Under the pieces are notes generated by a model that was not told the origin of the DNA, did not search any database, and was given only the letters and a program-made list of their open reading frames with translations. The translations under genes were made by a program, and so were the position numbers. Positions 1 through 12,612 of a stretch of 26,310 bases of DNA are shown here, in pieces; position 1 is the stretch's first letter; each line of letters starts with the position of its first letter. Location of the stretch: positions 1 through 26,310 of IMG/VR virus record IMGVR_UViG_3300030330_000631. One strand, given 5' to 3'. Source of the stretch: a virus. Taxonomy: Duplodnaviria > Caudoviricetes.

Positions 1-86
1 TAGTGTCTGTTGTGACTGGTGCAATGACCGGAGCATTTGCTATCTGGTTAGGAAAGGAAACACATAATGAAAGCTCTATACGATAA
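1..86 (+). CDS. 3' end of a small membrane protein (holin-like), truncated by the window start
   Basis: Manual translation from position 3: VSVVTGAMTGAFAIWLGKETHNESSIR*, TAA at 84-86. Hydrophobic helix, located in the lysis cassette. Confidence 0.6.
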   Translation, partial: VSVVTGAMTGAFAIWLGKETHNESSIR

Positions 87-231
87 GTTAACAGATCGAC
101 AGAAGAAAACTATGGAGAAACATAGTAAGCATCATAGTAAGAAACATATGATGGCAATGACTAAGATGATGGTAAAAGGATCGTCGTTCACAGCGGCACA
201 TAAGAAAGCAAAGAAGATGGTGGGTAATTGA
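67..231 (+). CDS. Small basic His/Met-rich phage protein (54 aa)
   Basis: Not in the ORF track. MKALYDKLTDRQKKTMEKHSKHHSKKHMMAMTKMMVKGSSFTAAHKKAKKMVGN*. AAGGA upstream; stop overlaps the next start (TTGA). Confidence 0.7.
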   Translation: MKALYDKLTDRQKKTMEKHSKHHSKKHMMAMTKMMVKGSSFTAAHKKAKKMVGN

Positions 232-593
232 TATTCAAAGCACTACAACTTGTGGGTGGTATGGCATCTACATGGATAGAATCCAAAGCTGAATCACAGA
301 AACTTAACCTGGAGATAAAAAAGAAGCAGTTGACTGGAGATATTGACTGGGATTTGGAGGCTATGAAGGGTTCGCAGTCTTCTTGGAAGGACGAATACCT
401 TGTAATTTTATTTAGTATTCCTCTTATTCTTTGTTTCTGTGGTTCTTGGGGGAGAAACATTGTAGAACAGGGCTTCAGAGCCTTAGAAACGATGCCTGAG
501 TGGTATCAGGTAACTTTAGGTTGTATTGTAGCCGCCAGCTTTGGCATACGCTCAGTGACTAAATTCTTTGGGCTACGAAAGAATGGGAAATAA
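228..593 (+). CDS. Putative holin (GTA 3TM-holin-like)
   Basis: Hydrophobic segments YLVILFSIPLILCFCG and WYQVTLGCIVAASFGIR, SWKDE motif, basic C-terminus, directly upstream of the endolysin. Confidence 0.7.
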   Translation: MIFKALQLVGGMASTWIESKAESQKLNLEIKKKQLTGDIDWDLEAMKGSQSSWKDEYLVILFSIPLILCFCGSWGRNIVEQGFRALETMPEWYQVTLGCIVAASFGIRSVTKFFGLRKNGK

Positions 594-663
594 TTGGGAA
601 AAACGTCGTGAGAATCTTCGTTTACATAGGGACTGGGATATTAGAAATTTTAGGAGGTATAAT

Positions 664-1131
664 ATGGCTTTTAAATTATCACAAAGATCACTGGATAGAC
701 TGGATGGAGTACATCCTAAGCTTGTTGAGGTTGTTAAGAAAGCGATTGAGTATACTGATGTCGACTTTGGAGTAATCTATGGTGTTCGTGATTTAGAAAC
801 TCAAAAGAAACTATTTGATTCTGGCAAATCGCAGACAATGGCTAGTAAACATTTGATTCAGGAAGATGGGTATGCACACGCTGTTGACCTTATGGCTTAT
901 GATGGCAGTAATCCATCTTGGGATATTGTGGATTATGATAACATAGCTGATGCTATGCGTAAGGCGGCAAAAGAAGTTGGTATTGATTTGGTTTGGGGTG
1001 CGGCATGGCACAAGTTACTAACAGTATCACCGGATAGTGCAGAGGATTTGATGAATGACTACATCGACACAAGACGAAAAGAAAATAGACGACCCTTCAT
1101 CGATGGACCTCACTTCCAACTCCACACCTAG
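664..1131 (+). CDS. Endolysin, M15 family Zn peptidase (L-Ala-D-Glu peptidase-like)
   Basis: Motifs R..Q..L, SKH...HAVDL, WG..W and C-terminal DGPHFQL. AGGAGGT SD before ATG 664 (MAFKLSQRS); the ORF track start at 568 is probably too early. Confidence 0.9.
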   Translation: MAFKLSQRSLDRLDGVHPKLVEVVKKAIEYTDVDFGVIYGVRDLETQKKLFDSGKSQTMASKHLIQEDGYAHAVDLMAYDGSNPSWDIVDYDNIADAMRKAAKEVGIDLVWGAAWHKLLTVSPDSAEDLMNDYIDTRRKENRRPFIDGPHFQLHT

Positions 1132-1210
1132 TCAGTTAGCTTTTGACTTTGATGATTACGATGGGCCGCCAGAGTTGTGGCTAGAATACTTGTGGTCACT
1201 TCTTCCCTAG
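1103..1210 (+). CDS. Possible 35-aa acidic peptide
   Basis: MDLTSNSTPSQLAFDFDDYDGPPELWLEYLWSLLP*. Fills the gap between the convergent gene blocks; no clear SD. Confidence 0.3.
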   Translation: MDLTSNSTPSQLAFDFDDYDGPPELWLEYLWSLLP

Positions 1211-1459
1211 TTTACTATGAACTTCTTCTTCAAAATGTTTCACAAAAGCTTTGTCTATTTTATTAGGCTTTTTTGAGTTTCTTTCTGCAAGTATTTTTTC
1301 ATTATAATGATCTCGCCATTTCTTTTCTTCTCTTGTGTTAAGAAGAATATCAGCAACAGCTTCTCTTACTTCTTGTCTTATTCTTTCTCTGAATTTTTTA
1401 TTATCAAATAAAGAAAATCCTAATGCACCTATTATAAATTTTTCACTTACTTTTCCCAT
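1196..1459 (-). CDS. Hypothetical protein
   Basis: 87-aa ORF overlapping the upstream gene's stop; last gene of the - strand block. Confidence 0.65.
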   Translation of the reverse strand: MGKVSEKFIIGALGFSLFDNKKFRERIRQEVREAVADILLNTREEKKWRDHYNEKILAERNSKKPNKIDKAFVKHFEEEVHSKLGKK

Positions 1460-1659
1460 AGCTTTTTCCTTTCTATATATAAAGCAATGATATCTTCAAA
1501 GTTATCTGGTTTGCGAGGTGGTACTGTGCTGTAGATGTTGTATGCTTCAAAACATCTGTTTTCGTTATAGACTTGTTCGCTTAGTTTCTGACATTCTCTT
1601 GCAGACTCGAGATCAATAGTCAGCATGAGAATGATAGTGTGTGTCATCTTTTCTATCAT
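1447..1659 (-). CDS. Hypothetical protein (70 aa)
   Basis: Start reassigned to ATG 1659 (MIEKMTH...), preceded by GGAGATAACT. Confidence 0.65.
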   Translation of the reverse strand: MIEKMTHTIILMLTIDLESARECQKLSEQVYNENRCFEAYNIYSTVPPRKPDNFEDIIALYIERKKLWEK

Positions 1660-1679
1660 AGTTATCTCCGCTGGTAAAA

Positions 1680-1719
1680 CTAGGAGGTCTGGCAAGCAGA
1701 GCAGTATTAGACCTCCTAG
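1680..1719 (-). terminator. Perfect 11-bp hairpin with 18-nt loop, terminator-like
   Basis: CTAGGAGGTCT (1680-1690) pairs with AGACCTCCTAG (1709-1719); followed by TTTT on the - strand, downstream of ssb. Confidence 0.55.
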
Positions 1720-1722
1720 CAT

Positions 1723-1765
1723 GTTTTAGGATTAGTTTATTTGGAGAAAACTATGTTCCTAAAAC
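1723..1765 (-). ncRNA. Candidate antisense (anti-RBS) RNA hairpin in the ssb 3' end
   Basis: - strand: GTTTTAGGA-ACA-TAGTTT-[TCTCCAAAT]-AAACTA-A-TCCTAAAAC. Contains CATAGTTTTCTCCAA, complementary to the RBS plus ATG of the genes starting at 6537, 3496, 7202 and 1659. Confidence 0.55.
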
Positions 1766-2142
1766 GGTATTTCATCATCTTGAAGTTCTTTGTCAATATT
1801 ATTTTGGTCTGCTGATGCTCTTTTTTCTGTAACCTCGAGCGATAATATTTGACCAGCTTTCGAGTCTTTTAGCCAAGCGGCAATACGCTTCTCTCCAGAG
1901 TTAACACCTATTACACCAGATATCTGTGGTGCTGATGGATTGTCTGAGGAGTTATCCCACATGCGTCCTACTTTAACATACACATCTCGAACAACTGTTC
2001 CGTCTGGCATTGTATCTCTTGTGATAGCAATACGCTTTTCCTCACCATCATCATTAAGAGTACCAGTACCAATCAGACTAAGATTTGTTTTTGTCTGCAT
2101 GTAAAGCACACCTTTGTTATTGTTATCGTATTGTTGATCCAT
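1759..2142 (-). CDS. Single-stranded DNA-binding protein (phage type)
   Basis: Acidic C-terminal tail LQDDEIPF, beta-rich body, AGGAGGT SD, follows the exonuclease and annealing-protein genes. Confidence 0.75.
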   Translation of the reverse strand: MDQQYDNNNKGVLYMQTKTNLSLIGTGTLNDDGEEKRIAITRDTMPDGTVVRDVYVKVGRMWDNSSDNPSAPQISGVIGVNSGEKRIAAWLKDSKAGQILSLEVTEKRASADQNNIDKELQDDEIPF

Positions 2143-2153
2143 ATTACCTCCTA

Positions 2154-2657
2154 TTAAATTAATGGATTTTTAGTATTTTTATTATTTCCAGGCTCATACT
2201 TATTGCCGTCATATTTACCAAGAAACATATCTGCATCACATCCTATGTGCGATAGAGCTTTTGTTAGGGCATCGGTCATTGCTGATTTAGTAGCTTCTTC
2301 ATCACTAATTCTTCTGACTAAAGGCTTGCCATTAACTTGTGCATTAGAAATAAATGTTCGACACCCAGCAACTGGTCCAAATTTATTTTCTGGTAGAGTA
2401 TGCCAAACAGTGACACGCGCAACTACCATCATCACATCAGCATGACATGGATAATCATACTCGACATCATATCCCCATCCCATACCAACTGGACCAAATG
2501 TTTCTGTCATCTTTTTAATCTGATACTGAGCATCAACAGTATTAAAAGATCGAGAGCCTATACTTACTTTCTTCATATGCTTCTGATCTGTTTCGCATAT
2601 TGCGTTCCATATAGCCATTCTATCTTCATACAGCTTTGATTTTTCTATCTTACTCAT
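2154..2657 (-). CDS. Single-strand annealing protein, Rad52/Sak-like
   Basis: Motifs MTETFGPVGMGWGY and EATKSAMTDALTKALSHIGCDAD; located between the YqaJ and SSB genes. Confidence 0.75.
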   Translation of the reverse strand: MSKIEKSKLYEDRMAIWNAICETDQKHMKKVSIGSRSFNTVDAQYQIKKMTETFGPVGMGWGYDVEYDYPCHADVMMVVARVTVWHTLPENKFGPVAGCRTFISNAQVNGKPLVRRISDEEATKSAMTDALTKALSHIGCDADMFLGKYDGNKYEPGNNKNTKNPLI

Positions 2658-3496
2658 GCTTGCTCCTTTACTTTAATAGTTCTTCTTTTGTCGGTTATGT
2701 TTACAGTTAATAAACTACAATCCATCTGGTATACATCAGGTGGTATGTGGCTCATCAATCTCTTCTTGGCTGACTCGTTCTTCTTTGCAGACTCGAGCGT
2801 ATCTACATAGTCATGCGCGTCTGACATCCACTCGTTGTCTCTGTTCATATCCATCTTGACCTTCCTATCAATCGCGATGCTTGAGATATCTGGGGTCACC
2901 GCATCACGATTGCTAGGAGGTTTCTTCTTGACTACATGTTTCCAAAACTCTTGAATTTTACCAAGCATTTTGTATGAGTATTCTGGGTCGTATGCAATAT
3001 GCTTTGACTCCCATTTACTGTTGCCAAATATAACAGATAAGAAACATCCATCTGGTTTGTAGTTGTACTCTTCACAATGTTTATTATGTAAGTGCATATA
3101 GAACTGTATCTGTGGCATGTATCTCTCGATAACATCAGTCATGTTTGTAAACGCATTGGTGTGCTTTGCTTCTACAATGTAGCTTTTATTTGCGCTGTCT
3201 ACACACATCATGTCTGCTGTACCTTTGAGGGGTACATAGCCATCATCGTATCTGAACTCAAATTGAAGTTCACGCTCTGTACCAGCCATTGCATAGCCAG
3301 GTGAGTACGATTGCACCCACCAGTCGAGATTGAACTGCTCTGTGTGTACACCCAGCTGAACAGCTAGCACCTCTGATAAATCTTCTGGTTCTGTAAGCCC
3401 TACCTTCTCTTGGTACAGCTCCAGCCACTCTCCATTCATAATTCTGATAGCATCTGTGCCACCGATAAAATCTTTTCTATCGTTAATGATTCCCAT
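2654..3496 (-). CDS. YqaJ/lambda-exonuclease-like recombination nuclease
   Basis: R..FIGGTDA..I, LYQEK.G, G.H.E, GTAD...IVEAK and YMPQIQFYM motifs; SD AAGGAG. Confidence 0.9.
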   Translation of the reverse strand: MGIINDRKDFIGGTDAIRIMNGEWLELYQEKVGLTEPEDLSEVLAVQLGVHTEQFNLDWWVQSYSPGYAMAGTERELQFEFRYDDGYVPLKGTADMMCVDSANKSYIVEAKHTNAFTNMTDVIERYMPQIQFYMHLHNKHCEEYNYKPDGCFLSVIFGNSKWESKHIAYDPEYSYKMLGKIQEFWKHVVKKKPPSNRDAVTPDISSIAIDRKVKMDMNRDNEWMSDAHDYVDTLESAKKNESAKKRLMSHIPPDVYQMDCSLLTVNITDKRRTIKVKEQA

Positions 3497-3520
3497 AGTT
3501 TTCTCCTTATTTATATGGCT

Positions 3521-3549
3521 ATATTAGTTTCACTTCTGCAACTCGTCAA
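3521..3549 (-). promoter_or_regulatory. Sigma70-type promoter for the exo-SSAP-SSB operon
   Basis: TTGACG (3549-3544), 17-nt spacer, TAATAT (3526-3521), about 25 nt upstream of ATG 3496. Confidence 0.65.
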
Positions 3550-4015
3550 CTTTATTCTGGAACAATTCGAGATAAATTTTACGCATCTCATACTCTTTCT
3601 TTACCAAAGCGTAAACATCAGAGTAAGGTGGTAGAATACGAAAACTTTTAATAGATTGATTGTAGATATGCATAATGCAATCTGCTGGTAAATCTATCAA
3701 ACTCTCGATCATAATATCTACACGCGTACTACACTCATCCATACTCGTTTCATAAGGACGCTGGAACAAGTACTTCCATCGAGAGAACAACTGCTCAACT
3801 CTCTCTCTTTTGTGTGGTGTTAGATATGCTTCGATATTTGCAACGGCGGCAATGGCATCAGAAAGTTTATCGACCTCGATGTTAATACCATTTACGCGAA
3901 CAGTGGATAACGCATTGAGTTCACGAACCATTTGTGCATTTGCTTTTGATGGATCACGAAAAGAAAGAAGAGTAGCGACATTGCCACCCTCACTGATTGA
4001 TACGACTTTAGACAT
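3530..4015 (-). CDS. Hypothetical protein (possibly helicase-loader-like)
   Basis: 161 aa, SD AAGGAG, coupled start (TAATG). The L.DLP.D...F...P...V pattern is only loosely reminiscent of phage loader proteins. Confidence 0.7.
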   Translation of the reverse strand: MSKVVSISEGGNVATLLSFRDPSKANAQMVRELNALSTVRVNGINIEVDKLSDAIAAVANIEAYLTPHKRERVEQLFSRWKYLFQRPYETSMDECSTRVDIMIESLIDLPADCIMHIYNQSIKSFRILPPYSDVYALVKKEYEMRKIYLELFQNKVDELQK

Positions 4016-4347
4016 TAGTTCTCCTTATTTATTAAATTTTTAAATGTTGATTCCCATACTCGGTCACTAATTACTACACAGTATCGAGGGTCGCCAGTCT
4101 TCCGCTTGCATACTGCGATATCCCTATCTTCAAGAAGATTAAATACATTTGGAAAAGAACTCTTATCTCGATACTTTACTTCTACAAAGAGAACCTGACC
4201 ATCAATCTCGATAGTCAAATCCCCTTTGTATTCACCACCTAAACTGCCCGATAGTGGTTGTTTCTTTGTCTTTATACCTAAGTTATTCCATAGCTTTAGA
4301 AACCATCGTTCGTGATAGCTTCCTTTTGCTTTATTTTTGCTAACCAT
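4015..4347 (-). CDS. Holliday junction resolvase, Hjc-like PD-(D/E)xK nuclease
   Basis: N-terminal K.KG..HER, SGS.GG, GDL...VEVK; SD GAGGAGG. Confidence 0.85.
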   Translation of the reverse strand: MVSKNKAKGSYHERWFLKLWNNLGIKTKKQPLSGSLGGEYKGDLTIEIDGQVLFVEVKYRDKSSFPNVFNLLEDRDIAVCKRKTGDPRYCVVISDRVWESTFKNLINKEN

Positions 4348-4526
4348 GTATCCTCCTCATAGCACTTGTGACATATCAAACTGCTCTTATATAGAAAGAC
4401 TACAAAGTATTGAGTCTGTTGACCACAAGCATCACATCTTTGCCATGCTCTTTGCACCTCTCCTTTATTTTTTTTGGAGCGTCGCAAGTTGGTCAATAGC
4501 TCTTTCAATCTTGATAGCAGTGTCAT
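4296..4526 (-). CDS. Small Zn-finger protein (start uncertain)
   Basis: CDAC...CHKC pair; fills the gap between the HTH and resolvase genes and overlaps both. Confidence 0.55.
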   Translation of the reverse strand: MTLLSRLKELLTNLRRSKKNKGEVQRAWQRCDACGQQTQYFVVFLYKSSLICHKCYEEDTWLAKIKQKEAITNDGF

Positions 4527-4656
4527 ATCTTAGTTCAGTGCCTTTTAGTTGTCTGTAGTAGGTAGTCTTTGATAGACCAGCCCAGTTAAAAGCATCACGC
4601 AAACTGACCTTCTGATTCTCTGATTGAATTGTTAGCTGTTCCAAATAACTTTTCAT
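4465..4656 (-). CDS. Cro/XRE-like HTH DNA-binding protein
   Basis: 63 aa; SLRDAFNWAGLSKTTYYR HTH followed by a recognition-type segment LRYDTAIKI. Confidence 0.75.
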   Translation of the reverse strand: MKSYLEQLTIQSENQKVSLRDAFNWAGLSKTTYYRQLKGTELRYDTAIKIERAIDQLATLQKK

Positions 4657-4987
4657 AGAGAATAGGTCTACTACGCTTTGCTTGTAAAGACAAGTATCTA
4701 TTGATTGTTTTGTTACCTAATGCGGTAATAAAATATTTTCTGACTAGTCCAGGTGCTTTTGGATTGGCATACAGTATGCGTTCATTATCTTGCATCTGTA
4801 CTGATATGATAAATCCATAGCGATGCTCGAGCTGGTGTAACGTCGTGCTGATTGTTCCATGCTTGAGATCAGGCAGCTCTTTCCGAAAAGTAGAATATGA
4901 TATTCTTGGTGGTTTTGGGTTTGACTTATCTGTATATAGTTTTACTGTAGCTAATATACGAACTTGATTAGACGTTAGTTTTTTCAT
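4595..4987 (-). CDS. Winged-helix DNA-binding protein
   Basis: Start at MKKLTSNQ (GAAGGA SD). LT..Q..IL start, GTISTTLHQLE..GFI helix, RKYFITALG wing. Confidence 0.7.
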   Translation of the reverse strand: MKKLTSNQVRILATVKLYTDKSNPKPPRISYSTFRKELPDLKHGTISTTLHQLEHRYGFIISVQMQDNERILYANPKAPGLVRKYFITALGNKTINRYLSLQAKRSRPILYEKLFGTANNSIRESEGQFA

Positions 4988-5007
4988 GTTATAGTATCCT
5001 TCAAACT

Positions 5008-5086
5008 GGGGAGGCTCCGACACCTCCCCTTTTTTGTATCAGACCACGCTGGTTACTGGATGGTGGTTTGTGCCAGAACTGATACA
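5008..5086. other. Two adjacent intergenic stem-loops
   Basis: GGGGAGG/CCTCCCC (5008-5029) followed by T6 on +. TGTATCAG/CTGATACA (5035-5086) encloses ACCAC/GTGGT. Confidence 0.55.
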
Positions 5087-5088
5087 TG

Positions 5089-5280
5089 TTATGGTTGCAT
5101 TGCTTTTTCAGTTAGGTTTTCAATAACCAAGTCCATTAGAACTTCCATCGGGACATTAGTTGTTTTGATACCTACTTCATCACAATAGTTTAGAAGATCA
5201 AGGCAAGGCATTGCGTTTACCTTATCCTCGATCTCTTCTAGTATGATAGTATTAATTGGATGTGACATCATCGCTCCCAT
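5089..5280 (-). CDS. Hypothetical protein
   Basis: About 60 aa in the tightly packed - strand operon; true start may be 5271 or 5268 (GGAG SD). Confidence 0.6.
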   Translation of the reverse strand: MGAMMSHPINTIILEEIEDKVNAMPCLDLLNYCDEVGIKTTNVPMEVLMDLVIENLTEKAMQP

Positions 5281-5527
5281 AATGTATTTTCCGACCAGCT
5301 ACTTTGTCTTCACCATTGGTCGGTATATTGGTTTCATTTCTAGTGTCGTCTACAAATGCATAGTAGTCTACGATTTCTTTGATTGCATCTTTGACTCTTT
5401 CGATATCATAACGAACACTACTTGATGGTATACGCTGTTTATCTTCTGATAATGATTCATAGAACAGCATATCTCTGCGTAGTCTTTCTTCAAGTGTTAC
5501 CATTTCTTTACCTCTTATTGTTTTCAT
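5252..5527 (-). CDS. Hypothetical protein
   Basis: Coupled to the upstream stop (TAATG); alternative start 5503 with GAGGT SD. Confidence 0.6.
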   Translation of the reverse strand: MKTIRGKEMVTLEERLRRDMLFYESLSEDKQRIPSSSVRYDIERVKDAIKEIVDYYAFVDDTRNETNIPTNGEDKVAGRKIHYGSDDVTSN

Positions 5528-5859
5528 TAGAATAGTTCCTTCTGTTGTGGCTCATCGCCTAGTTTTTGTTTTAAGCTGGACAGAAACTCCTCATTGCTAG
5601 TTGGTTCATCACAATGAGTTGTGCCGCCGTAATGCTCTGATCTACGCGCCAGCATGTACGAGCGATACCCAGTTTCTGTCAGCGGACTCTTTACTTGATT
5701 ACCATTTACATCGGTTACATTGAGTTCAAAGTGATCTACTACATAGGGCATACCATGCTCTGAATAGTTTAGATAATCACGACAAACTCGCACACTGTGT
5801 GTCAATTTATTCCACACAAATGTTCCTACATTCTCAAAAGCTTTCTGCATATTTTGCAT
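5527..5859 (-). CDS. Hypothetical protein with PLTETGYRS motif and C-terminal QKELF
   Basis: 110 aa, operonic position; the C-terminus resembles a beta-clamp-binding motif. Confidence 0.7.
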   Translation of the reverse strand: MQNMQKAFENVGTFVWNKLTHSVRVCRDYLNYSEHGMPYVVDHFELNVTDVNGNQVKSPLTETGYRSYMLARRSEHYGGTTHCDEPTSNEEFLSSLKQKLGDEPQQKELF

Positions 5860-6175
5860 AATCCTTTTGCCAGAATGGTTTCATCATAGGAGCTACAGAT
5901 TGACCAGCAAGCTCAGCATTCATAGTCATCTTTAGATCTTTCTCATAGTCTTTACGAAACATATATCTTGCAAAGTGAACACCGTTTTTTGTTTCTCTGA
6001 TTGCTATGATGTCTGCTCCGTTTGTATTTAAATCATGGATTCTCGATGCGAGTCGCCGACAACCGAAACCTAAAGCTTCTTTGTCTGTTATAGATCCGTG
6101 TAGTCTTATAGATGCAAGAACTAATCCGCATTGCGAATCAGCCCTCGGTTCAATGAAGTATTTCTCATTGGTCAT
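5834..6175 (-). CDS. Phage winged-HTH protein (HTH_39-like)
   Basis: Q...VL....HGSIT..EA..FGC.RLASRIHDL...G.DI pattern; GGAGGT SD. Confidence 0.75.
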   Translation of the reverse strand: MTNEKYFIEPRADSQCGLVLASIRLHGSITDKEALGFGCRRLASRIHDLNTNGADIIAIRETKNGVHFARYMFRKDYEKDLKMTMNAELAGQSVAPMMKPFWQKDYAKYAESF

Positions 6176-6537
6176 TAGTTTACCTCCGTTGTAAATTGTA
6201 ATTCCTGGACTGGTGAATCAGGTCCACTTTCGATATGAATATCAAGTGTACGACATAACTCCGGTGCATACACTCTCTCAAGCGTATTGATTACATTATC
6301 TTTCTTGTCGTAAAACTTAATTGTATAGTCATCAGCCCAAGTAAGATCAACGTCAACACGACCTTGATGCTTGAATCCATTGGTATTCATTTTGATACCA
6401 GCTCTTCTTTCTTTTGATTCTGGTAATGCAAAACAGTTCATACCTACGATAACTCCCCAGCAGTTCATTGCATTTGGATCTGCATACTGAATCTGTCGTA
6501 GTATTTCTTTAGCGTAATAAAATGTTTGATCGTTCAT
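6175..6537 (-). CDS. Hypothetical early protein
   Basis: Start at MNDQTF, preceded by TTGGAGAAAACT; L.WADDY.I motif. Confidence 0.75.
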   Translation of the reverse strand: MNDQTFYYAKEILRQIQYADPNAMNCWGVIVGMNCFALPESKERRAGIKMNTNGFKHQGRVDVDLTWADDYTIKFYDKKDNVINTLERVYAPELCRTLDIHIESGPDSPVQELQFTTEVN

Positions 6538-6570
6538 AGTTTTCTCCAATTCTAATTATAGATTAATTTT

Positions 6571-6930
6571 TTAACAAAAGCCACTCTTTACTCTGTACAA
6601 TCCATTGATGTATCTTGTTTGAAAATCAACATACCATCTCATGAATGTATCGTTTGTAACCATACTTCTTACATAACCTGATTCATGTTCAGATTCTTCA
6701 TCGCCATATCTGGCTCTCCAACACCAACAGGCTTGACCATATGATTTGTCTACATAAAAGTATATATCAACTACATCATAATTATTGTTCCAATGCTTAC
6801 AGCTGGCATAAAACAAATCATCATAATCTAGTTCTTCTTTGAACTGTGGTTTGAACTGAATGACCTTGTAAGGAATTAACTTTTTAGAATTAGCCATTGC
6901 AAGTTTTGGTGTGTACTTAATCATGTTCAT
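6571..6930 (-). CDS. Hypothetical early protein
   Basis: 119 aa, GGAG SD. Confidence 0.65.
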   Translation of the reverse strand: MNMIKYTPKLAMANSKKLIPYKVIQFKPQFKEELDYDDLFYASCKHWNNNYDVVDIYFYVDKSYGQACWCWRARYGDEESEHESGYVRSMVTNDTFMRWYVDFQTRYINGLYRVKSGFC

Positions 6931-6941
6931 ATCTCACTCCA

Positions 6942-7202
6942 TTAATCAGCAATATGTTTATATTTATTTTTATAAAGATACCAAAAAACACCAGCCATCA
7001 TCGCATCAGCTAGTCTTTTATATGAATGTGATCGCCGTGTTTTGTTACAGAAAACTTCCCAAACAATTTTACCATTTTTCATCACATCCCATATCTGGAT
7101 ATCTCCATCTTGTTTCAAACGATAATACTCAATACTAGTAAACTCATCATCATACATATGATCTACACCATAATGTTTATATACTTCACTAAGCTTTATC
7201 AT
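6942..7202 (-). CDS. Hypothetical early protein (86 aa)
   Basis: Start at MIKLSEV, preceded by TGGAGAGAACT. Confidence 0.65.
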   Translation of the reverse strand: MIKLSEVYKHYGVDHMYDDEFTSIEYYRLKQDGDIQIWDVMKNGKIVWEVFCNKTRRSHSYKRLADAMMAGVFWYLYKNKYKHIAD

Positions 7203-7228
7203 AGTTCTCTCCATTAAATTTATAACAC

Positions 7229-7316
7229 CTCGAAAAGCACTACGATTTCCAAGCGTCAAGGTCGCAACGCGCCGAAGGGAAACCTTGATGCGAGATGGAA
7301 ATCATGTGCTATCGAG
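7229..7316 (+). promoter_or_regulatory. Long imperfect hairpin with T-shaped end; candidate single-strand promoter or origin element
   Basis: Stems CTCGA/TCGAG, AGCAC/GTGCT, GATTTCCA/TGGAAATC and GCGTCAAGGT/ACCTTGATGC, capped by CGC-AAC-GCG and CC-GAA-GG. The structure is seen directly; the function is inferred. Confidence 0.55.
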
Positions 7317-7426
7317 ATCAAATTTTGATTATCAAATCATTCATGAACTTGCGTAAATATCATTGCGCTGGCGCGGCAACACTCTCGCTAACGCGACCCC
7401 CCACCGATGTAGTGAGTGAGTGTGCT

Positions 7427-7466
7427 AAACCAGTTGTGGGTTGGCTTGGTTCGGCACAACTGGTTT
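7427..7466 (-). terminator. Perfect 12-bp hairpin with 16-nt loop
   Basis: AAACCAGTTGTG/CACAACTGGTTT, directly after the stop of the 22-aa ORF. Confidence 0.5.
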
Positions 7467-7535
7467 CTACACCGCTATATGACACAAGATGATTATGCCA
7501 CTAGCTATCACAATGATGTTAAATAAGTCTGTCAT
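7467..7535 (-). CDS. 22-aa hydrophobic membrane peptide
   Basis: Not in the ORF track. GAGGT-AATC-ATG; MTDLFNIIVIASGIIILCHIAV*. Confidence 0.5.
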   Translation of the reverse strand: MTDLFNIIVIASGIIILCHIAV

Positions 7536-7551
7536 GATTACCTCAATGTAA

Positions 7552-7582
7552 TGAGAGCCACCCCAGTATGAGGTGACTCCCA
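7552..7582 (-). other. mRNA hairpin downstream of the 253-aa gene
   Basis: - strand TGGGAGTCACCTCA-TAC-TGGGGTGGCTCTCA: 14 bp with three G-U pairs, which fixes the strand as -. Confidence 0.6.
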
Positions 7583-7591
7583 ATGTTATAG

Positions 7592-8353
7592 TTATACGTT
7601 GTTAGATTCTGGAGATTCATCAGCTTCATGCTTCTGAGTCACCTCATTGTTCTGACCATTTAAGACAGATTGGATAAGTTTTTCTCTGTCTAGATCCTCT
7701 AACAACTTAGCACCTGACTTAGCAGATTGCTCAGAATATGTTTGGTATGTATCTCCAGTAGTTGCTAAGTACCACATCTCGATAACCTTAGTGATTCTTA
7801 GATTATCTTGAGCAACATCGATGTTAGTCTTACCAACTTGAGCAAGATGACGTAGCTGTGTATCTGTGTCACTGTTCTTGCCCAATGCTCGATCTAGGAT
7901 ACGTCGTTCAGCCTTTGCGATCTGATTACCTCCAATGTTTAACTGTCTGGTAATAGCATCATTAAACTGACCATTCTTATCAGTCTTACGAGTACCCCAA
8001 AGTAAAGATTCCCAATATGGAACAGCTGACATTTTGCCAACTGGAATCATTTCATCAGTTTCTTCCCATATGGTATTACCAAGAGAATCTTTACCATTAG
8101 CTTTTCTATGAACATGCTTCTGACTATCAATGTCATACTGCATCTCATATGGATTATGTACCATGTCATTACCCATCATAAAGTTAAGTACATGTAACAT
8201 GCATAACTCAACTCCTCTTGGTGAAGATAGTTTGGAAAGAATAGATTGAATAGTCTTACTCTCATATTCTTTTTGTAGTTTCTTATAATCGTTAATTAAT
8301 TCATCTTTACTAAATCTAGTACTAGTTACTTCTATATTATTATCTAAAGCCAT
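7592..8353 (-). CDS. Hypothetical protein, first gene of the early block (253 aa)
   Basis: Long ORF with strong AGGAGGT SD; no family recognised. Confidence 0.85.
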   Translation of the reverse strand: MALDNNIEVTSTRFSKDELINDYKKLQKEYESKTIQSILSKLSSPRGVELCMLHVLNFMMGNDMVHNPYEMQYDIDSQKHVHRKANGKDSLGNTIWEETDEMIPVGKMSAVPYWESLLWGTRKTDKNGQFNDAITRQLNIGGNQIAKAERRILDRALGKNSDTDTQLRHLAQVGKTNIDVAQDNLRITKVIEMWYLATTGDTYQTYSEQSAKSGAKLLEDLDREKLIQSVLNGQNNEVTQKHEADESPESNNV

Positions 8354-8382
8354 TATGACCTCCTATATTAAGATTAAAATTA

Positions 8383-8664
8383 AGTACACACACAACGATA
8401 TGTACAGGTTCGAAAGCCTATAAATCTGACATGGTTCTCAATACCGAAACAACTCCGCGAGTTGCTTGGTGCAGAAAAGGGGACAAAGTTTTTGACACAG
8501 CCGAGATATGCAGAAAAGAAACAAAGCAGTGAGTGTGGCAAAAAGTTTGCAAGCAAGGGAGAAATAAATCAGGCTTGCCTTTTCTGGATTTCGGTATTTA
8601 GGTTCTGGCAGATTTGTAGGACGGTCATCATGCCTATGATATAATCGTTAGATGTGTGTGTATT
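8383..8664 (+). other. Large branched fold-back (about 280 nt) in the divergent control region
   Basis: Nested stems 8384-8393/8654-8663, 8394-8399/8644-8649, 8417-8428/8609-8620, 8440-8449/8589-8598, 8472-8480/8578-8586 and 8484-8499/8534-8549. G-T pairs favour the + strand. Confidence 0.7.
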
Positions 8665-8665
8665 C

Positions 8666-8828
8666 GTGTCAATTGTGAGTAAGATTCTACGATTATCTAA
8701 GCGATATGTAACGTAGTGTGTATTGAGGAACGAGATACACCGAAGTGGAATATGGCTTACCATTCCGAGAACCCGAAGGGCATGCGTCTGCATTGCATAT
8801 CCTGACACAAAGCTGGTTACACGAAGTG
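8666..8828 (+). other. Second structured domain with GAA mini-hairpins
   Basis: GTGTCA/TGACAC (8666-8671/8803-8808), wobble-rich stem 8703-8723/8782-8801, CCC-GAA-GGG (8772-8780), CAC-GAA-GTG (8820-8828). Confidence 0.5.
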
Positions 8829-8856
8829 CAAATATTAAGAATCTTGAATTAATGTA

Positions 8857-8886
8857 TTGACACTAGCAGAATAAATGACGCAAAAT
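8857..8886 (+). promoter_or_regulatory. Sigma70-like promoter for terS
   Basis: TTGACA (8857-8862), 18-nt spacer, CAAAAT (8881-8886); predicted +1 close to ATG 8894. Confidence 0.45.
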
Positions 8887-9262
8887 GATCGGCATGGAAC
8901 TTACAAGGATAACAGAGAAACAGAAGAAGCTAGTTGATACACTAGTAGCAAAAGGATGTAGTGTAAAACAAGCCAGTGAAGAAGCTGGATATGCACAAGG
9001 AGAATCAGGTAGAGTCAGTGCAAGCAAGGCGTTGAAGACACCACATGTGCAACAGTATATGATGCAACAGATAGCAGACAGTATAGGAATCAATGCTACG
9101 ATAGCCAGTAATAAACTGCTAAGACTAGCAAGTGGAGCTAAATCTGAGTATGTACAGCTTGAAGCTAGCAAGGATATACTAGATAGAGCTGGGTTTAAAG
9201 CACCAGATAAGGTAATGCATAGCCATGTAGGTAATATAAATGTTAAGATAGACTTGAGCTGA
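8885..9262 (+). CDS. terS: Terminase small subunit (start 8885 or 8894)
   Basis: ITEKQKKLV...KQASEEAGY....ASKALK.P.V HTH; QLEASKDILDRAG oligomerisation helix; upstream of terL. Confidence 0.85.
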   Translation: MIGMELTRITEKQKKLVDTLVAKGCSVKQASEEAGYAQGESGRVSASKALKTPHVQQYMMQQIADSIGINATIASNKLLRLASGAKSEYVQLEASKDILDRAGFKAPDKVMHSHVGNINVKIDLS

Positions 9263-9392
9263 TTATTGTCTGTAAGCTACACAGGTATAGGGGCTACCCC
9301 AAAAAGTAGCACACCTACAAATAACAATGGTATAGCCCTAGCATTTTTTTCCAAAAAGGTACTTCATCACAGAAAAGAAAAAGGAGAGTAAC

Positions 9393-9761
9393 ATGAGAGT
9401 AGGAGTTATGATGGCTGGTCTGTTAAAAAAGTTATTGCATACAAAACAGAACGTAGATAGTCTTTCTGAAGAGGAGATAGTCAATGGCGAAGACACCACT
9501 GTGGCAGAGAAAGGGAGGGAAGAATCCCAAAGGCGGTCTAAACGCGGCAGGTCGAAGGTCAGCAAAAGCTCAAGGGATGAATCTCAAAGCACCAGTAAAG
9601 TCAGGCGACAATCCTCGAAGAGCCAGCTTTCTAGCAAGAATGGGAAACGCTCGAGGACCGGAATACAAGGACGGAAAGCCGACTCGACTTCTTCTCAGTC
9701 TAAGAGCATGGGGAGCATCAAGCAAAGCCGACGCACGAAAAAAAGCGGCGGCAATAAGTAA
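9393..9761 (+). CDS. Possible overlapping Ser/Lys/Arg-rich protein
   Basis: Own SD (AAGGAGAG 9381-9388; second AGGAG before ATG 9408); overlaps 9484..9792 in another frame. Confidence 0.35.
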   Translation: MRVGVMMAGLLKKLLHTKQNVDSLSEEEIVNGEDTTVAEKGREESQRRSKRGRSKVSKSSRDESQSTSKVRRQSSKSQLSSKNGKRSRTGIQGRKADSTSSQSKSMGSIKQSRRTKKSGGNK

Positions 9762-9792
9762 ACGCAACAAAGCTAAGAAAAAGAAAGGGTAA
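9484..9792 (+). CDS. Basic phage protein (DUF6321-like, from memory)
   Basis: MAKTP.WQRK.GKNPKGGLN..GR and RRASF.ARM motifs; GAGGAG SD. Confidence 0.8.
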   Translation: MAKTPLWQRKGGKNPKGGLNAAGRRSAKAQGMNLKAPVKSGDNPRRASFLARMGNARGPEYKDGKPTRLLLSLRAWGASSKADARKKAAAISKRNKAKKKKG

Positions 9793-9795
9793 GCT

Positions 9796-9951
9796 ATGTA
9801 TGGTAGTAGTAAGACTATGGGATCAGCTCGCAAGATGAAGAAGAAAGAGAATGGTTCTAATGGAATGAATGGTTTAACAGCCAAGCAAAAGACTCTTCCA
9901 AAAAATTTACAGATGCTAATTCTAAAGAAGAAAAAGAAGAATGGCAGTTAA
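9796..9951 (+). CDS. Small Lys-rich protein (51 aa)
   Basis: Not in the ORF track. MYGSSKTMGSARKMKKKENGSNGMNGLTAKQKTLPKNLQMLILKKKKKNGS*; fills the gap exactly. Confidence 0.7.
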   Translation: MYGSSKTMGSARKMKKKENGSNGMNGLTAKQKTLPKNLQMLILKKKKKNGS

Positions 9952-10108
9952 TGCGGCTGGTAACTATACCAAACCAAAGATGCGTAAGGCTTTATTCAAC
10001 TCAATAAAAAATAGAGCTGTTCAAGGTACGGCGGCTGGTAAGTGGTCAGCAAGAAAAGCGCAACTCCTGGCTAAACTTTATAAGAAGCGTGGAGGTGGTT
10101 ATACCTAG
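9941..10108 (+). CDS. Small basic protein (55 aa), N-terminal half of a DUF5872-like family
   Basis: Not in the ORF track. MAVNAAGNYTKPKMRKALFNSIKNRAVQGTAAGKWSARKAQLLAKLYKKRGGGYT*. Confidence 0.75.
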   Translation: MAVNAAGNYTKPKMRKALFNSIKNRAVQGTAAGKWSARKAQLLAKLYKKRGGGYT

Positions 10109-10394
10109 TGATCCAAAAGAAGGTACTGGGAAAAAACCAAAGGGATCTGGTCGTAGACTTTATACAGATGAGAATCCTAAAGATACTGTTTCTATAAAGT
10201 ATGCAACAGTTGGTGATGCCAGACGTACTGCTAATAAGGTAAAGAAGATTAATAAACCTTATGCGCGAAAGATACAGATACTTACTGTAATGGAGCAGAG
10301 AAGTAAATATGGTGGTAAGCCAGAACAAGCGCGTATTGCAAAGATGGCAAAGATTCAACTAAGAAAGAAGAAGAATGAAAAAGTCACAACGTAG
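10089..10394 (+). CDS. Basic phage protein (start uncertain)
   Basis: DPK.GTGKKPKGSGRRLYTDENPKDTV motif; only GTG (10089, 10095) or ATA (10101) starts are available. Confidence 0.75.
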   Translation: MEVVIPSDPKEGTGKKPKGSGRRLYTDENPKDTVSIKYATVGDARRTANKVKKINKPYARKIQILTVMEQRSKYGGKPEQARIAKMAKIQLRKKKNEKVTT

Positions 10395-10617
10395 TTTAAA
10401 AGCATGGGGGGAACAAGATTGGCAAACCAAAAGTGGCAAGAAGTCTTCCGTGACTGGGGAAAGATATCTACCAAAGAAAGCAATCCAAGCTCTTTCAGCA
10501 GAAGAGTACGCACGAACCACAGCAGAGAAAAGAAAAGCAAAGAAGAAAGGGAAACAATTTTCTTCACAACCAAAAGCAATAGCAAAAAAGACAGCTCTCT
10601 ATAGGAGATTCTCATGA
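10375..10617 (+). CDS. Small basic protein, C-terminal half of a DUF5872-like family
   Basis: SQRSLK.W..QDW.TKSG....TGERYLPKKA...LS..EY..T...KR....GKQF motif. Confidence 0.75.
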   Translation: MKKSQRSLKAWGEQDWQTKSGKKSSVTGERYLPKKAIQALSAEEYARTTAEKRKAKKKGKQFSSQPKAIAKKTALYRRFS

Positions 10618-10817
10618 GCTTTATAAATAATCTCAAGCCAGAAGAACATAGATATTTAAGACGTATAGTTAAAGAAATACACTTTCAATACTTTGATGAG
10701 AAACATGGAGCTTCTTTTGTCACCAATAAAATGCTGGATAACATAATAGAAAACATTGGACCTGAAGTTGCAGAGTCAATGATAAGAACTGGTGTAGATA
10801 AAGGTGACAGAGTTTAA
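10614..10817 (+). CDS. Hypothetical protein
   Basis: ATGA-coupled to the previous gene; GGAG SD; overlaps the terL start. Confidence 0.7.
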   Translation: MSFINNLKPEEHRYLRRIVKEIHFQYFDEKHGASFVTNKMLDNIIENIGPEVAESMIRTGVDKGDRV

Positions 10818-12324
10818 GTACAAGCCTGACGGCAATGTTCTAAAAAATTTTATGAAGGATGATAGTTTCTTTCGTGGTATCCGCGGCCCAGTTGGTTCTG
10901 GTAAATCTGTTGGATGCTGTGTCGAAGTATTCCGAAGAGCATTAGAACAGAAGCCAAATGATGATGGAGTGCGTAAATCTCGATGGGCTGTCATCCGAAA
11001 CACTAATCCCCAGCTAAGAACAACAACAATTAAGACATGGTTAGACTGGTTTCCAGAATCAGATTGGGGAAACTTCCATTGGTCAGTTCCTTATACTCAC
11101 CACATAAAAAGAAATGATCTAGACCTAGAGGTAATTTTTTTAGCATTAGATAGACCAGAAGATGTAAAGAAACTTCTTTCTCTCGAACTTACTGGTATCT
11201 GGATTAATGAAGCAAGAGAGATTCCAAAGAGTATAGTTGATGCATGCACCATGCGTGTTGGTCGATTCCCAAGTATGCGAGAGGGTGGTGCTAGTTGGTC
11301 TGGTGTTATCTGTGATACAAACGCACCAGAAGAAGATCATTGGTGGGCTATTATGGCTGGAGAAGTTCCTATACCAGATCACATACCTCGAGAACAAGCG
11401 GCGATGTTGGTAAAGCCTGATAACTGGAAATTTTTTATTCAACCCCCAGCTATGATAGAAAAATTAAATGACCGCAAAGAAATTACTTCTTATTCTCTCA
11501 ACACAAAAGCAGAAAATAAAAAGAATATTTTAGAGAGTTATTATCCAAACCTAATTCAAGGTAAGACAAAAAACTGGATAGATGTATATGTAATGAATCG
11601 ATTAGGATTAATACAGGAAGGTAAGCCTGTATATCCTGACTTTGTTTCAGAAACACATATAGCAGATGAGGAGATACCTATAGCGGTAGGCATACCTTTA
11701 TACGTTGGTATTGACTTTGGCTTGACTCCTTCTGCTGTTTTTGGTCAGAAGGTTCGAGGTCGATGGTTGGTACAAGCTGAGATTGTAGCTGTTGATATGG
11801 GTGTAGTTCGTTTTGCTGAGTTACTACGACAAGAAATAGCAACACGATTTAATGGTCTTGATGTTTATATTTATGGTGATCCAGCTGGTGATTTCAGAGC
11901 GCAGACAGATGAATCAACTCCTTTTCAGATTCTTAGGGGTGCTGGTCTGAAAGCAGTGCCAGCTCCAAGTAATAGTGTCGATCTAAGATTAGAGTCTGTT
12001 GCTTCTCAGTTAACAAAGATGTCTGAAGGATTGCCAGCATTTCTAATTGATAGAAGATGTCCTACACTAATCAAAGGTTTTCAAGGTGGCTACTGTTATA
12101 GACGTATGCAAGTATCTGGAGAAAGATATGATGATAAACCTGATAAAAATATGTACTCCCATATCCATGATGCCTTGCAATATATGATGTTAGGAGCTGG
12201 AGAAGGTAGAACATTAATAGCTGGTCAAAAACCAGTGAAAGCGTTTAATGCAAGAAAAGGCTTTGATATTTTTAGAAGATCGCCTATTAATAGAAAAGGC
12301 GGTTCTTTTTGGAACAGATTATAG
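10804..12324 (+). CDS. terL: Terminase large subunit
   Basis: Walker A GPVGSGKS, Walker B IWINEARE, coupling motif DTN, RNase H-like GIDFG and HIHDALQY. Confidence 0.95.
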   Translation: MTEFKYKPDGNVLKNFMKDDSFFRGIRGPVGSGKSVGCCVEVFRRALEQKPNDDGVRKSRWAVIRNTNPQLRTTTIKTWLDWFPESDWGNFHWSVPYTHHIKRNDLDLEVIFLALDRPEDVKKLLSLELTGIWINEAREIPKSIVDACTMRVGRFPSMREGGASWSGVICDTNAPEEDHWWAIMAGEVPIPDHIPREQAAMLVKPDNWKFFIQPPAMIEKLNDRKEITSYSLNTKAENKKNILESYYPNLIQGKTKNWIDVYVMNRLGLIQEGKPVYPDFVSETHIADEEIPIAVGIPLYVGIDFGLTPSAVFGQKVRGRWLVQAEIVAVDMGVVRFAELLRQEIATRFNGLDVYIYGDPAGDFRAQTDESTPFQILRGAGLKAVPAPSNSVDLRLESVASQLTKMSEGLPAFLIDRRCPTLIKGFQGGYCYRRMQVSGERYDDKPDKNMYSHIHDALQYMMLGAGEGRTLIAGQKPVKAFNARKGFDIFRRSPINRKGGSFWNRL

Positions 12325-12333
12325 GAGGTCAAT

Positions 12334-12612
12334 ATGTGCTTTGGCGGCGGTGGTAGTCCAGCTCCTGAACCAGTGAGCGAACCAGTAAAAGAGCAACAGA
12401 AAGCTCAAAAAGAAGAAGAAACCAAAAGAAAAATAGAACGTAGGCAAGAAGAGAAAGAAGATACTATTCAAGCTGAAACTCCTATAGCAACATCCTTAAC
12501 ATTTGAAACTGGTGCTAAAGCTGGTCAAAGAGTTATGAGAGGTAGTAGAGGTAGACGCGCACTATACACTTCTCAAAGAGGTGGCATAGGTTATAGAAAT
12601 CCATTACTCTAG
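12334..12612 (+). CDS. Small virion protein preceding the portal (T7 gp7.3-like position)
   Basis: MCFGGG N-terminus, RG.RGRRAL..S C-terminus, AGGAGGT SD. Confidence 0.7.
   Translation: MCFGGGGSPAPEPVSEPVKEQQKAQKEEETKRKIERRQEEKEDTIQAETPIATSLTFETGAKAGQRVMRGSRGRRALYTSQRGGIGYRNPLL

Follow-up and report, generated by a model that had tools for sequence, protein, structure and literature searches.

Immediately downstream of its ssb gene, a marine phage genome fragment carries a minus-strand segment complementary to a shared RBS "address" at the starts of several early genes. Across relatives, this post-ssb segment and the early-gene starts have very probably been under selection for pairing with each other. 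Because the segment and the early-gene RBS change together across relatives, the element is likely an RNA that silences these genes as a group, and trans repression by a small RNA seems to us the most likely mechanism, held at somewhat better than even confidence. Here, "early" denotes non-structural genes on the ssb strand and is defined by position, not by timing.

The window, meaning the whole 26,310-nt stretch of DNA that was analysed, is a 26.3-kb virus record with an estimated completeness of 80%. Its plus strand holds a podovirus-type late block, and its minus strand gathers small genes, an exonuclease, an annealing protein and an SSB in one block. The nearest cultured relatives are all distant: Pelagibacter phage Hodr is the closest by capsid (51%; exonuclease 33%), and the annealing protein matches those of HTVC035P and Lederberg at 41–43%. 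A genome scan with the exonuclease gave nine loci at 31–40% identity, none pointing to a host; one exonuclease relative (40%, L253) sits on a 15-kb contig in an archaeal-labelled MAG and is probably a mis-binned phage contig. The minus-strand genes and promoter-like site that matter here are as follows.

6942–7202, minus strand: 86-aa gene, putative target
6175–6537, minus strand: 120-aa gene, putative target, with no PHROG or Pfam family and only unnamed viral clusters
3521–3549, minus strand: promoter-like site of the exo-SSAP-ssb operon, from a promoter scan, TTGAC kept in relatives
2654–3496, minus strand: YqaJ/RecE-like exonuclease gene (exo), first of the operon (phrog_434, E 2e-25; YqaJ, E 9e-4, under the curated cut-off)
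2154–2657, minus strand: single-strand annealing protein (SSAP) gene, matching its putative counterpart in HTVC035P at 42.8%
1759–2142, minus strand: ssb (phrog_18154, E 2e-6), whose own RBS lacks the address
1447–1659, minus strand: 70-aa gene just downstream of the element
1196–1459, minus strand: 87-aa gene with a weaker address-like start

For two target proteins, protein-atlas searches turned up no function. When window positions 1196–1459 and 1–1213 were compared with relatives, the 87-aa gene was absent or replaced in several near ones. SSB alleles (~53% identity) are swapped among near relatives, and the element stays nearly identical. Elsewhere on the minus strand, 375 non-coding nt at 7215–7590, between the 253-aa and 86-aa genes, form several strong hairpins (−137.9 kcal/mol, a raw energy without shuffle comparison), possibly an origin or another RNA. 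A long structured region lies upstream of the first early gene, at 8363–8880 (minus); it contains a UUUCUCCC stretch near 8563 and is partly conserved (~74% identity) in L053, L112 and L113. We considered a second copy of the element at about 8563 (minus) and rejected it: the copy is present only in near-identical genomes, and paralogy found no support.

The element occupies about 1765–1676 on the minus strand, beginning near the ssb stop and closing with hairpin 2; with this second hairpin it is larger than the single hairpin of the sequence-only reading. Its parts, and a candidate promoter box just upstream, are listed below.

1791–1796, minus strand: TTGACA, candidate −35 box within the ssb tail; the stop codon ends 38 nt downstream
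1723–1765, minus strand: hairpin 1, whose basal stem lies over the ssb Phe and stop codons and encloses the anti-RBS segment
1741–1755, minus strand: anti-RBS segment CAUAGUUUUCUCCAA (anti-SD, spacer and anti-AUG), assigned from complementarity and covariation with the exo RBS
1676–1719, minus strand: hairpin 2, an 11-bp terminator-like stem with a large loop, then four U
1699–1705, minus strand: loop motif ACUGCUC in hairpin 2, conserved in near loci

Folding 1723–1765 on the minus strand returned the hairpin described in the sequence-only reading, with 9-bp and 6-bp stems and a 9-nt loop (−12.2 kcal/mol, z −4.67; none of 200 shuffles was equally stable). Opening the 15-nt anti-RBS segment is predicted to cost 5.4 kcal/mol, and opening the loop seed 0.04 kcal/mol. 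The same reading had named four early-gene starts as complementary, and each match was confirmed at its full length; a fifth site is weaker.

7200–7213, minus strand: address copy at the 86-aa gene start, 14 bp with one G-U pair
6535–6549, minus strand: address copy at the 120-aa gene start, 15/15
3494–3506, minus strand: address copy at the exonuclease start, 13/13, about −20.7 kcal/mol
1657–1669, minus strand: address copy at the 70-aa gene start, 12/13, 70 nt downstream and able to pair in cis
1457–1469, minus strand: weaker address-like site at the 87-aa gene start, −14.3 kcal/mol

With duplex energies of −22.0, −21.2, about −20.7 and −16.9 kcal/mol, the four named sites are the segment's best partners on both strands of the 26-kb window after its own complement. 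The other 11 minus-strand starts reach −4.1 to −12.1 kcal/mol and 18 plus-strand starts −2.2 to −11.9 kcal/mol. Allowing one mismatch over 13 nt, the 45 nt after the ssb stop match 4 of 16 minus-strand starts, and none of 3419 other 45-nt windows exceeded two starts in the same test. Complementarity is restricted to non-structural genes of the ssb strand; the SSAP RBS does not match the segment in the window and does so in some relatives. Positions 1743–1755 (plus) hold the window's sole exact inverted address copy. In the lysis region, an address copy with one mismatch at 102–114 (plus) gives a second near-complement on the minus strand.

To follow the element through relatives, we gathered loci by protein searches and by DNA patterns, which select for the seed and, in one case, not for the spacer. 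The element was present in 220 of 259 loci; 11 of these lay outside the family and were dropped before counting, leaving 209. The loci are redundant and related to one another. TTCTC lay within 45 nt in 114 of the 127 (redundant) loci with an SSB hit and 40 nt beyond it, and the seed was absent from 13 protein-found loci having the most distant SSBs. Identity between exo RBS and anti segment over spacer positions 3–6 was 75/112 (28 distinct pairs, 159 loci), against a shuffled mean of 44.1, and no shuffle among 200,000 was as high. The matched states include AAAACT, AAAGCT, AAAGCA, AACACT, AACCAA, AACCAC, AACGT and AACTAA. Same-genome controls gave 22 of 28 distinct pairs matching at 4 nt beyond GGAG for exo, vs 0/28 for the RBS of ssb itself, 11/38 for SSAP and 0/24 for the next gene. 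The exonuclease start is listed here as the most consistent predicted target, and the covariation anticipated in the sequence-only reading holds strongly. Pairs that failed to match at 4 nt numbered 6 of 28, and 7 of 23 in a protein-picked set (best 80 per scan).

In an exonuclease tree of 52 rows dereplicated from 89 (built by a quick method that gave long-branch warnings), the anti state has changed 9 times, against 12 changes of the RBS state and 13 of the joint state, and 46 of 52 rows match at 4 nt. Shared descent accounts for the association and, judging from these sequences, not for the complementarity in each state. A set of 158 further loci, picked by SSB protein alone through an alignment of distant SSBs (best 80 per scan, some contigs repeating), repeated the pattern. 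Within the best 80 per scan, 113 of 157 loci had TTCTC no more than 45 nt past the stop, and the seed occurred in 47 of 70 distinct ones, vs a shuffle rate of 5.8%. A complement of at least 8 nt to the locus's own exo RBS was present in 19 of 42 rows (best 80 per scan), vs 0/42 for its own ssb RBS. The longest complement averaged 7.0 nt for exo and 4.7 nt for ssb (42 dereplicated rows of the best 80 per scan, misses included); swapping partners gave a mean of 6.04, and 7.0 was never reached in 100,000 draws from this best-80-per-scan set. Sixteen of its 23 distinct pairs match at 4 nt, again among the best 80 per scan. The seed was missing in 44 of the 157 SSB-picked loci (best 80 per scan), many of which still have a GGAGAA-type exo RBS, so the address can persist without the element. 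The predicted element is common among relatives, not universal.

The number of matching starts bears on how the segment would act. Across relatives, the own-state 4-mer occurs at 161 of 585 same-strand starts vs 8 of 210 opposite-strand starts. All eight opposite-strand matches belong to the window's group, in which 4 nt show no enrichment (8/107 early-strand vs 8/63 opposite starts) and 5 nt are enriched on the early strand (8/107 vs 1/63). In long loci of the two nearest groups, means of 3.9 of 12.3 and 4.3 of 11.4 starts match (5 nt, G-U allowed), and in the AACAT/AACGT groups merely 1–2 starts per locus match at 5 nt. Several targets per genome would therefore be hard to serve in cis. This makes it unlikely, in our estimate, that the 3′ tail of the exo-SSAP-ssb mRNA acts chiefly by folding back over a long range on the exo RBS, with the other sites secondary. 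Such folding has a reported precedent in Staphylococcus aureus icaR (PMC3868564), would suit the exo RBS as the most consistent partner, and is compatible with a terminator scan (of sequence, not of mapped transcripts) that called no minus-strand terminator-like site between 3496 and 1765. However, sites that pair equally well or better are found 4.8 and 5.4 kb upstream, and the ssb tail carries promoter-like boxes suggestive of a separate short RNA.

A more skeptical reading treats the address as a DNA-level repeat, a protein-binding site or a product of recombination, with one inverted copy and no RNA pairing. Both strands fold alike (plus strand of 1723–1765, −11.8 kcal/mol, z −3.31), and the phage encodes a recombination pair, whose homogenisation would also yield identical copies within each genome. 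Yet the forward copies stand exactly at SD distance from ATG, and the inverted copy is fixed between a promoter-like box and a terminator-like hairpin beside SSBs of 45–55% identity and lower. In the window's group, 9 of 17 sites are in the neighbouring state that keeps a G-U pair, vs 3 of 45 in the reverse case (A-C). This asymmetry also speaks against a DNA repeat and fits RNA pairing, but also fits a recent change from ancestral AAAGC; in the substitution spectrum of all groups (A>G 8, G>A 6, C>T 4, T>C 7), G-U changes are not clearly in excess. We regard the DNA-level reading as having a very small chance of being right.

Among 21 distinct relatives, the two outer stems are conserved in prediction: the basal stem of hairpin 1 is paired in 95.2% of cells, with one compensatory pair (7 of 21 rows) falling at a synonymous codon position, and hairpin 2 in 98.3%, with compensatory changes at three pairs. 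Both-sided changes occur in 19 cells, a number reached by none of 500 shuffles, a control that ignores relatedness. We rejected a conserved inner stem, since RNAalifold omits it and just 61.7% of its cells are paired in those relatives. The 6-bp inner stem, as predicted, is present only in the window's clade, and the loop seed that then unzips a stem, put forward in the sequence-only reading as the anatomy of the RNA, is accordingly a clade-specific arrangement. Distant groups have a canonical terminator after the seed, which there is either unpaired or part of a different hairpin. Judging by these predicted folds, relatives conserve no single structure but the exposure of a UUCUCC seed following the ssb stop.

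Hairpin 2 is likely the 3′ end of the modelled RNA. It is absent from the terminator-scan calls, and that scan accepts loops of 3–8 nt; loop length in the two nearest groups runs from 10 to over 20 nt. ACTGCT is found in 118 of 118 loci of these two groups, and ACTGC in 33 of 58 AACA/AACG loci; it is absent from 32 others. We looked for a target of the ACUGCUC loop and rejected the candidates: complements occur in 57 distinct contexts on the early strand vs 20, many of them resembling Glu-Gln codons, and no conserved start site is among them. As a separate observation, a palindrome, ACTGCA-N4-TGCAGT, lies between the −35 and −10 of the exo promoter in the distant relatives L123–L135, L166, L178 and L192. 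It resembles a repressor operator, the window's 3521–3549 keeps a half site only, and the hairpin 2 loop motif resembles such a half site. An Rfam search of window positions 1–11000 (E up to 5) returned two unrelated weak hits, none at the element.

The source of the RNA was originally placed at the 3′ end of the exo-SSAP-SSB transcript. The position agrees with this; as the sole source it is not supported, as a candidate promoter in the ssb tail may start the RNA. Every one of the 28 distinct ssb tails from the two nearest groups has TTGACA at the same place, and its Asp codon is always GAC, vs 74 GAC and 212 GAT for the other Asp codons of these genes. Such a fixed −35-like box suggests an RNA with its own promoter; a small-RNA promoter within a coding sequence reportedly has a precedent in MicL. 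The window's −10 position reads GAAATA, a weak match. In 35 of 44 tails of the AACA/AACG groups, a TTG-led hexamer precedes the stop by 18 nt, and the stop then comes to lie at the −10 position, 6–8 nt before the seed; a start there would explain why complementarity in these groups ends 4–5 nt past GGAG. AACACT tails and most AACC tails have no promoter-like box, and the basal stem, including its compensated pair, reaches upstream of the start implied by the internal promoter. The operon promoter proposed at 3521–3549 was found by the scan, but the scan yields fewer such sites than shuffles do, and so this promoter rests mainly on the conservation of TTGAC, which lies at about −53 in most near relatives. 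Contigs from one possible RNA run cover 1871–2818, with the element outside and strand and ends not readable.

If the RNA begins inside the basal stem, it could also reach the next gene. The predicted probability of cis pairing with the 1669 site is 0.06 with the basal stem intact and 0.99 if the RNA starts at 1760. A local switch, in which the segment pairs with the next-gene RBS once the basal stem opens, for example through a ribosome ending on ssb, would build on this shift and on the next-gene pairing energies, which for most rows of the two nearest groups lie between −13.6 and −17.7 kcal/mol. However, the pairing falls to just −3.5 kcal/mol in L036/L039 and to −4 to −10.5 kcal/mol in distant groups, which have a terminator between, and exo pairing remains stronger in nearly all rows. 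As the main function, then, such a switch has little to recommend it, though it may be a side function in the window's clade.

The sequence-only reading had itself offered a way to dismiss the element, namely that its plus-strand copy is simply the RBS of a 20-aa antisense peptide (1753–1815). The window does have a good RBS and ATG there. Across the 209 loci, however, an ATG at RBS distance appears in only 47, all in the window's group, where 16 of 63 are without it, and the frames run to 8, 19, 20 or 107 codons. With the frame not conserved, this peptide is largely refuted, and we give it almost no weight.

Taken as an RNA, the element is probably a small RNA that pairs in trans with early messages and blocks their translation, a view we favour without strong conviction. 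An RNA of ~85–90 nt would arise from the promoter inside the ssb tail or be cut from the operon 3′ end. Its exposed UUCUCC would seed pairing, which would then extend over the spacer and, in the window, also over the AUG. Binding of the 30S subunit would be blocked at about 3–5 genes per genome, with ssb always spared, and the outcome would be negative feedback lowering early proteins after early transcription has run. A timer for the early-to-late switch is one possible consequence of such pairing. Alternatively, the pairing might act mainly against incoming related phages, an RNA-based exclusion in which address states are specificity groups. The address has changed at least nine times with the seed fixed, as might be expected of specificity determinants, and internal promoter-like boxes would permit expression apart from the operon. 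But drift with compensation accounts for these changes equally well, and no integrase was found among the 39 window ORFs or the 8 ORFs of a close relative's remaining region, giving no sign of a lysogen to protect. We consider exclusion as the main role improbable.

Trans repression of early genes by a small RNA may have analogues in cultured phages. In seven of seven HTVC010P-like pelagiphages (L022, L023 and L268–L272, from 19 records), a pyrimidine stretch after the gene in the ssb position contains a CCCUUUC segment, placed in a large hairpin and complementary to AGAAAGGG-type early RBSs; two of the genes in the ssb position were tested and have no Pfam family. At an arbitrary threshold of ≤−12 kcal/mol, the segment pairs with 19 of 106 same-strand starts vs 2 of 169 opposite-strand starts. 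Rank tests failed to reach significance in HTVC010P (p 0.51) and Lederberg (0.07), the best partners of the segment do not include the nuclease start, and the motif hardly varies among the seven phages, so it carries no covariation signal. The likeness to the post-ssb element is drawn as an analogy and makes no claim of homology. Hodr has no such element after ssb. Separately, at 12030–12380 of Hodr (L143), a long inverted repeat upstream of the first early gene includes the complement of that gene's RBS. A pelagiphage transcriptome paper (PMC12753301) deals with two other phage types, and its available text does not contain the words sRNA, non-coding or antisense.

A further comparison is offered by the start-associated sequences (SAS) known from mycobacteriophages of Cluster K and from Microbacterium phages of Cluster EF; their function is left unexplained in the available text of both reports (PMC3203893, PMC7302621). 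Like the address, which has four early-strand copies in the window, the SAS is an over-conserved RBS repeated before non-structural genes. Four K1 phages are described as having one SAS in the opposite orientation without a gene start (PMC3203893, PMC7302621), and the window's lone inverted copy without a gene start is 1743–1755 (plus). The two systems differ in copy number (11–19 vs 3–5 here), and their sequences and phage groups are unrelated; the published 13-bp consensus (PMC3203893) is unlike the window's address outside GGAG. The SAS system also has extended inverted repeats upstream; in the present family, a palindrome is seen in the exo promoters of distant relatives. In the text available, moreover, no antisense role is proposed for the inverted site, whereas covariation is seen here. 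Scanning the right 36 kb of one genome, Anaya, we found 16 forward SAS and one inverted, intergenic copy between genes 96 and 97 (L273 34871–34883; Anaya 59870–59882). Its anti-SD core falls in a hairpin loop in one fold prediction, beside a very strong hairpin.

It is tempting, though we would put it somewhat short of even odds, to propose that lytic phages widely use a private, evolving RBS address together with a promoter-driven antisense RNA. The resulting repressor regulon would time early shut-off, may define exclusion groups, would explain the Cluster K SAS and would operate in HTVC010P-type pelagiphages. This would offer a testable function for the SAS, unexplained in the accessible text of the 2011 and 2020 papers (PMC3203893, PMC7302621). 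The analogous loops in seven of seven cultured HTVC010P-like pelagiphages mean that a host-phage system exists for testing, and naturally matched RNA/RBS pairs would supply translational repressors ready to use.

Several known systems share parts of this arrangement. Fold-back is known from T7 gene 1.2. Phages also have an RNA that acts in trans on phage RBS regions, C4, which controls an antirepressor operon in temperate phages. The P1/P7 C4 antisense RNA is catalogued as Rfam RF01695 (PMC2864571), and the element differs in matching neither RF01695 nor any other Rfam family. OppZ and CarZ of Vibrio cholerae are autoregulatory 3′-UTR sRNAs for which RNase E processing and Hfq were shown (PMC7398697). 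As with them, an RNA from an operon 3′ end would pair with its own transcript, and both the location and the exo complementarity are found here. Going by the parts of that report at hand, they differ in being host genes processed by RNase E, whereas promoter-like boxes here suggest a primary transcript instead, and OppZ has one target transcript vs a several-gene shared address. In icaR, a 3′ anti-SD motif likewise pairs with the SD of the same mRNA, but the account available (PMC3868564) concerns a single gene with no multi-gene address and leaves cis or trans unresolved. Cuckoo sRNAs of alphaproteobacteria, described as 2–4 adjacent hairpins each with CCUCCUCCC in the loop (PMC4615179), similarly present an anti-SD motif in hairpin loops; here there is a single UUCUCC loop, the second loop differs, and the spacer tracks the phage's own genes.

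A functional parallel drawn here is with T4 RegB, through which early messages are shut off via an extended GGAG motif in the SD region, as described in the available text of PMC3014915. RegB is a protein nuclease, whereas the putative reader here is an RNA; among the 39 window ORFs there is no PHROG hit to the RegB family, though many early ORFs have no family and a distant RegB is possible. In the main texts of the open-access literature, we found no description of a phage RNA that reads a shared early-gene RBS. The class of mechanism is already known; several genes addressed by a phage's own RNA would be a variant of it for which we found no published account in that literature. If true, it would be an RNA counterpart to T4 RegB, shutting off early genes as a group via a shared RBS address.
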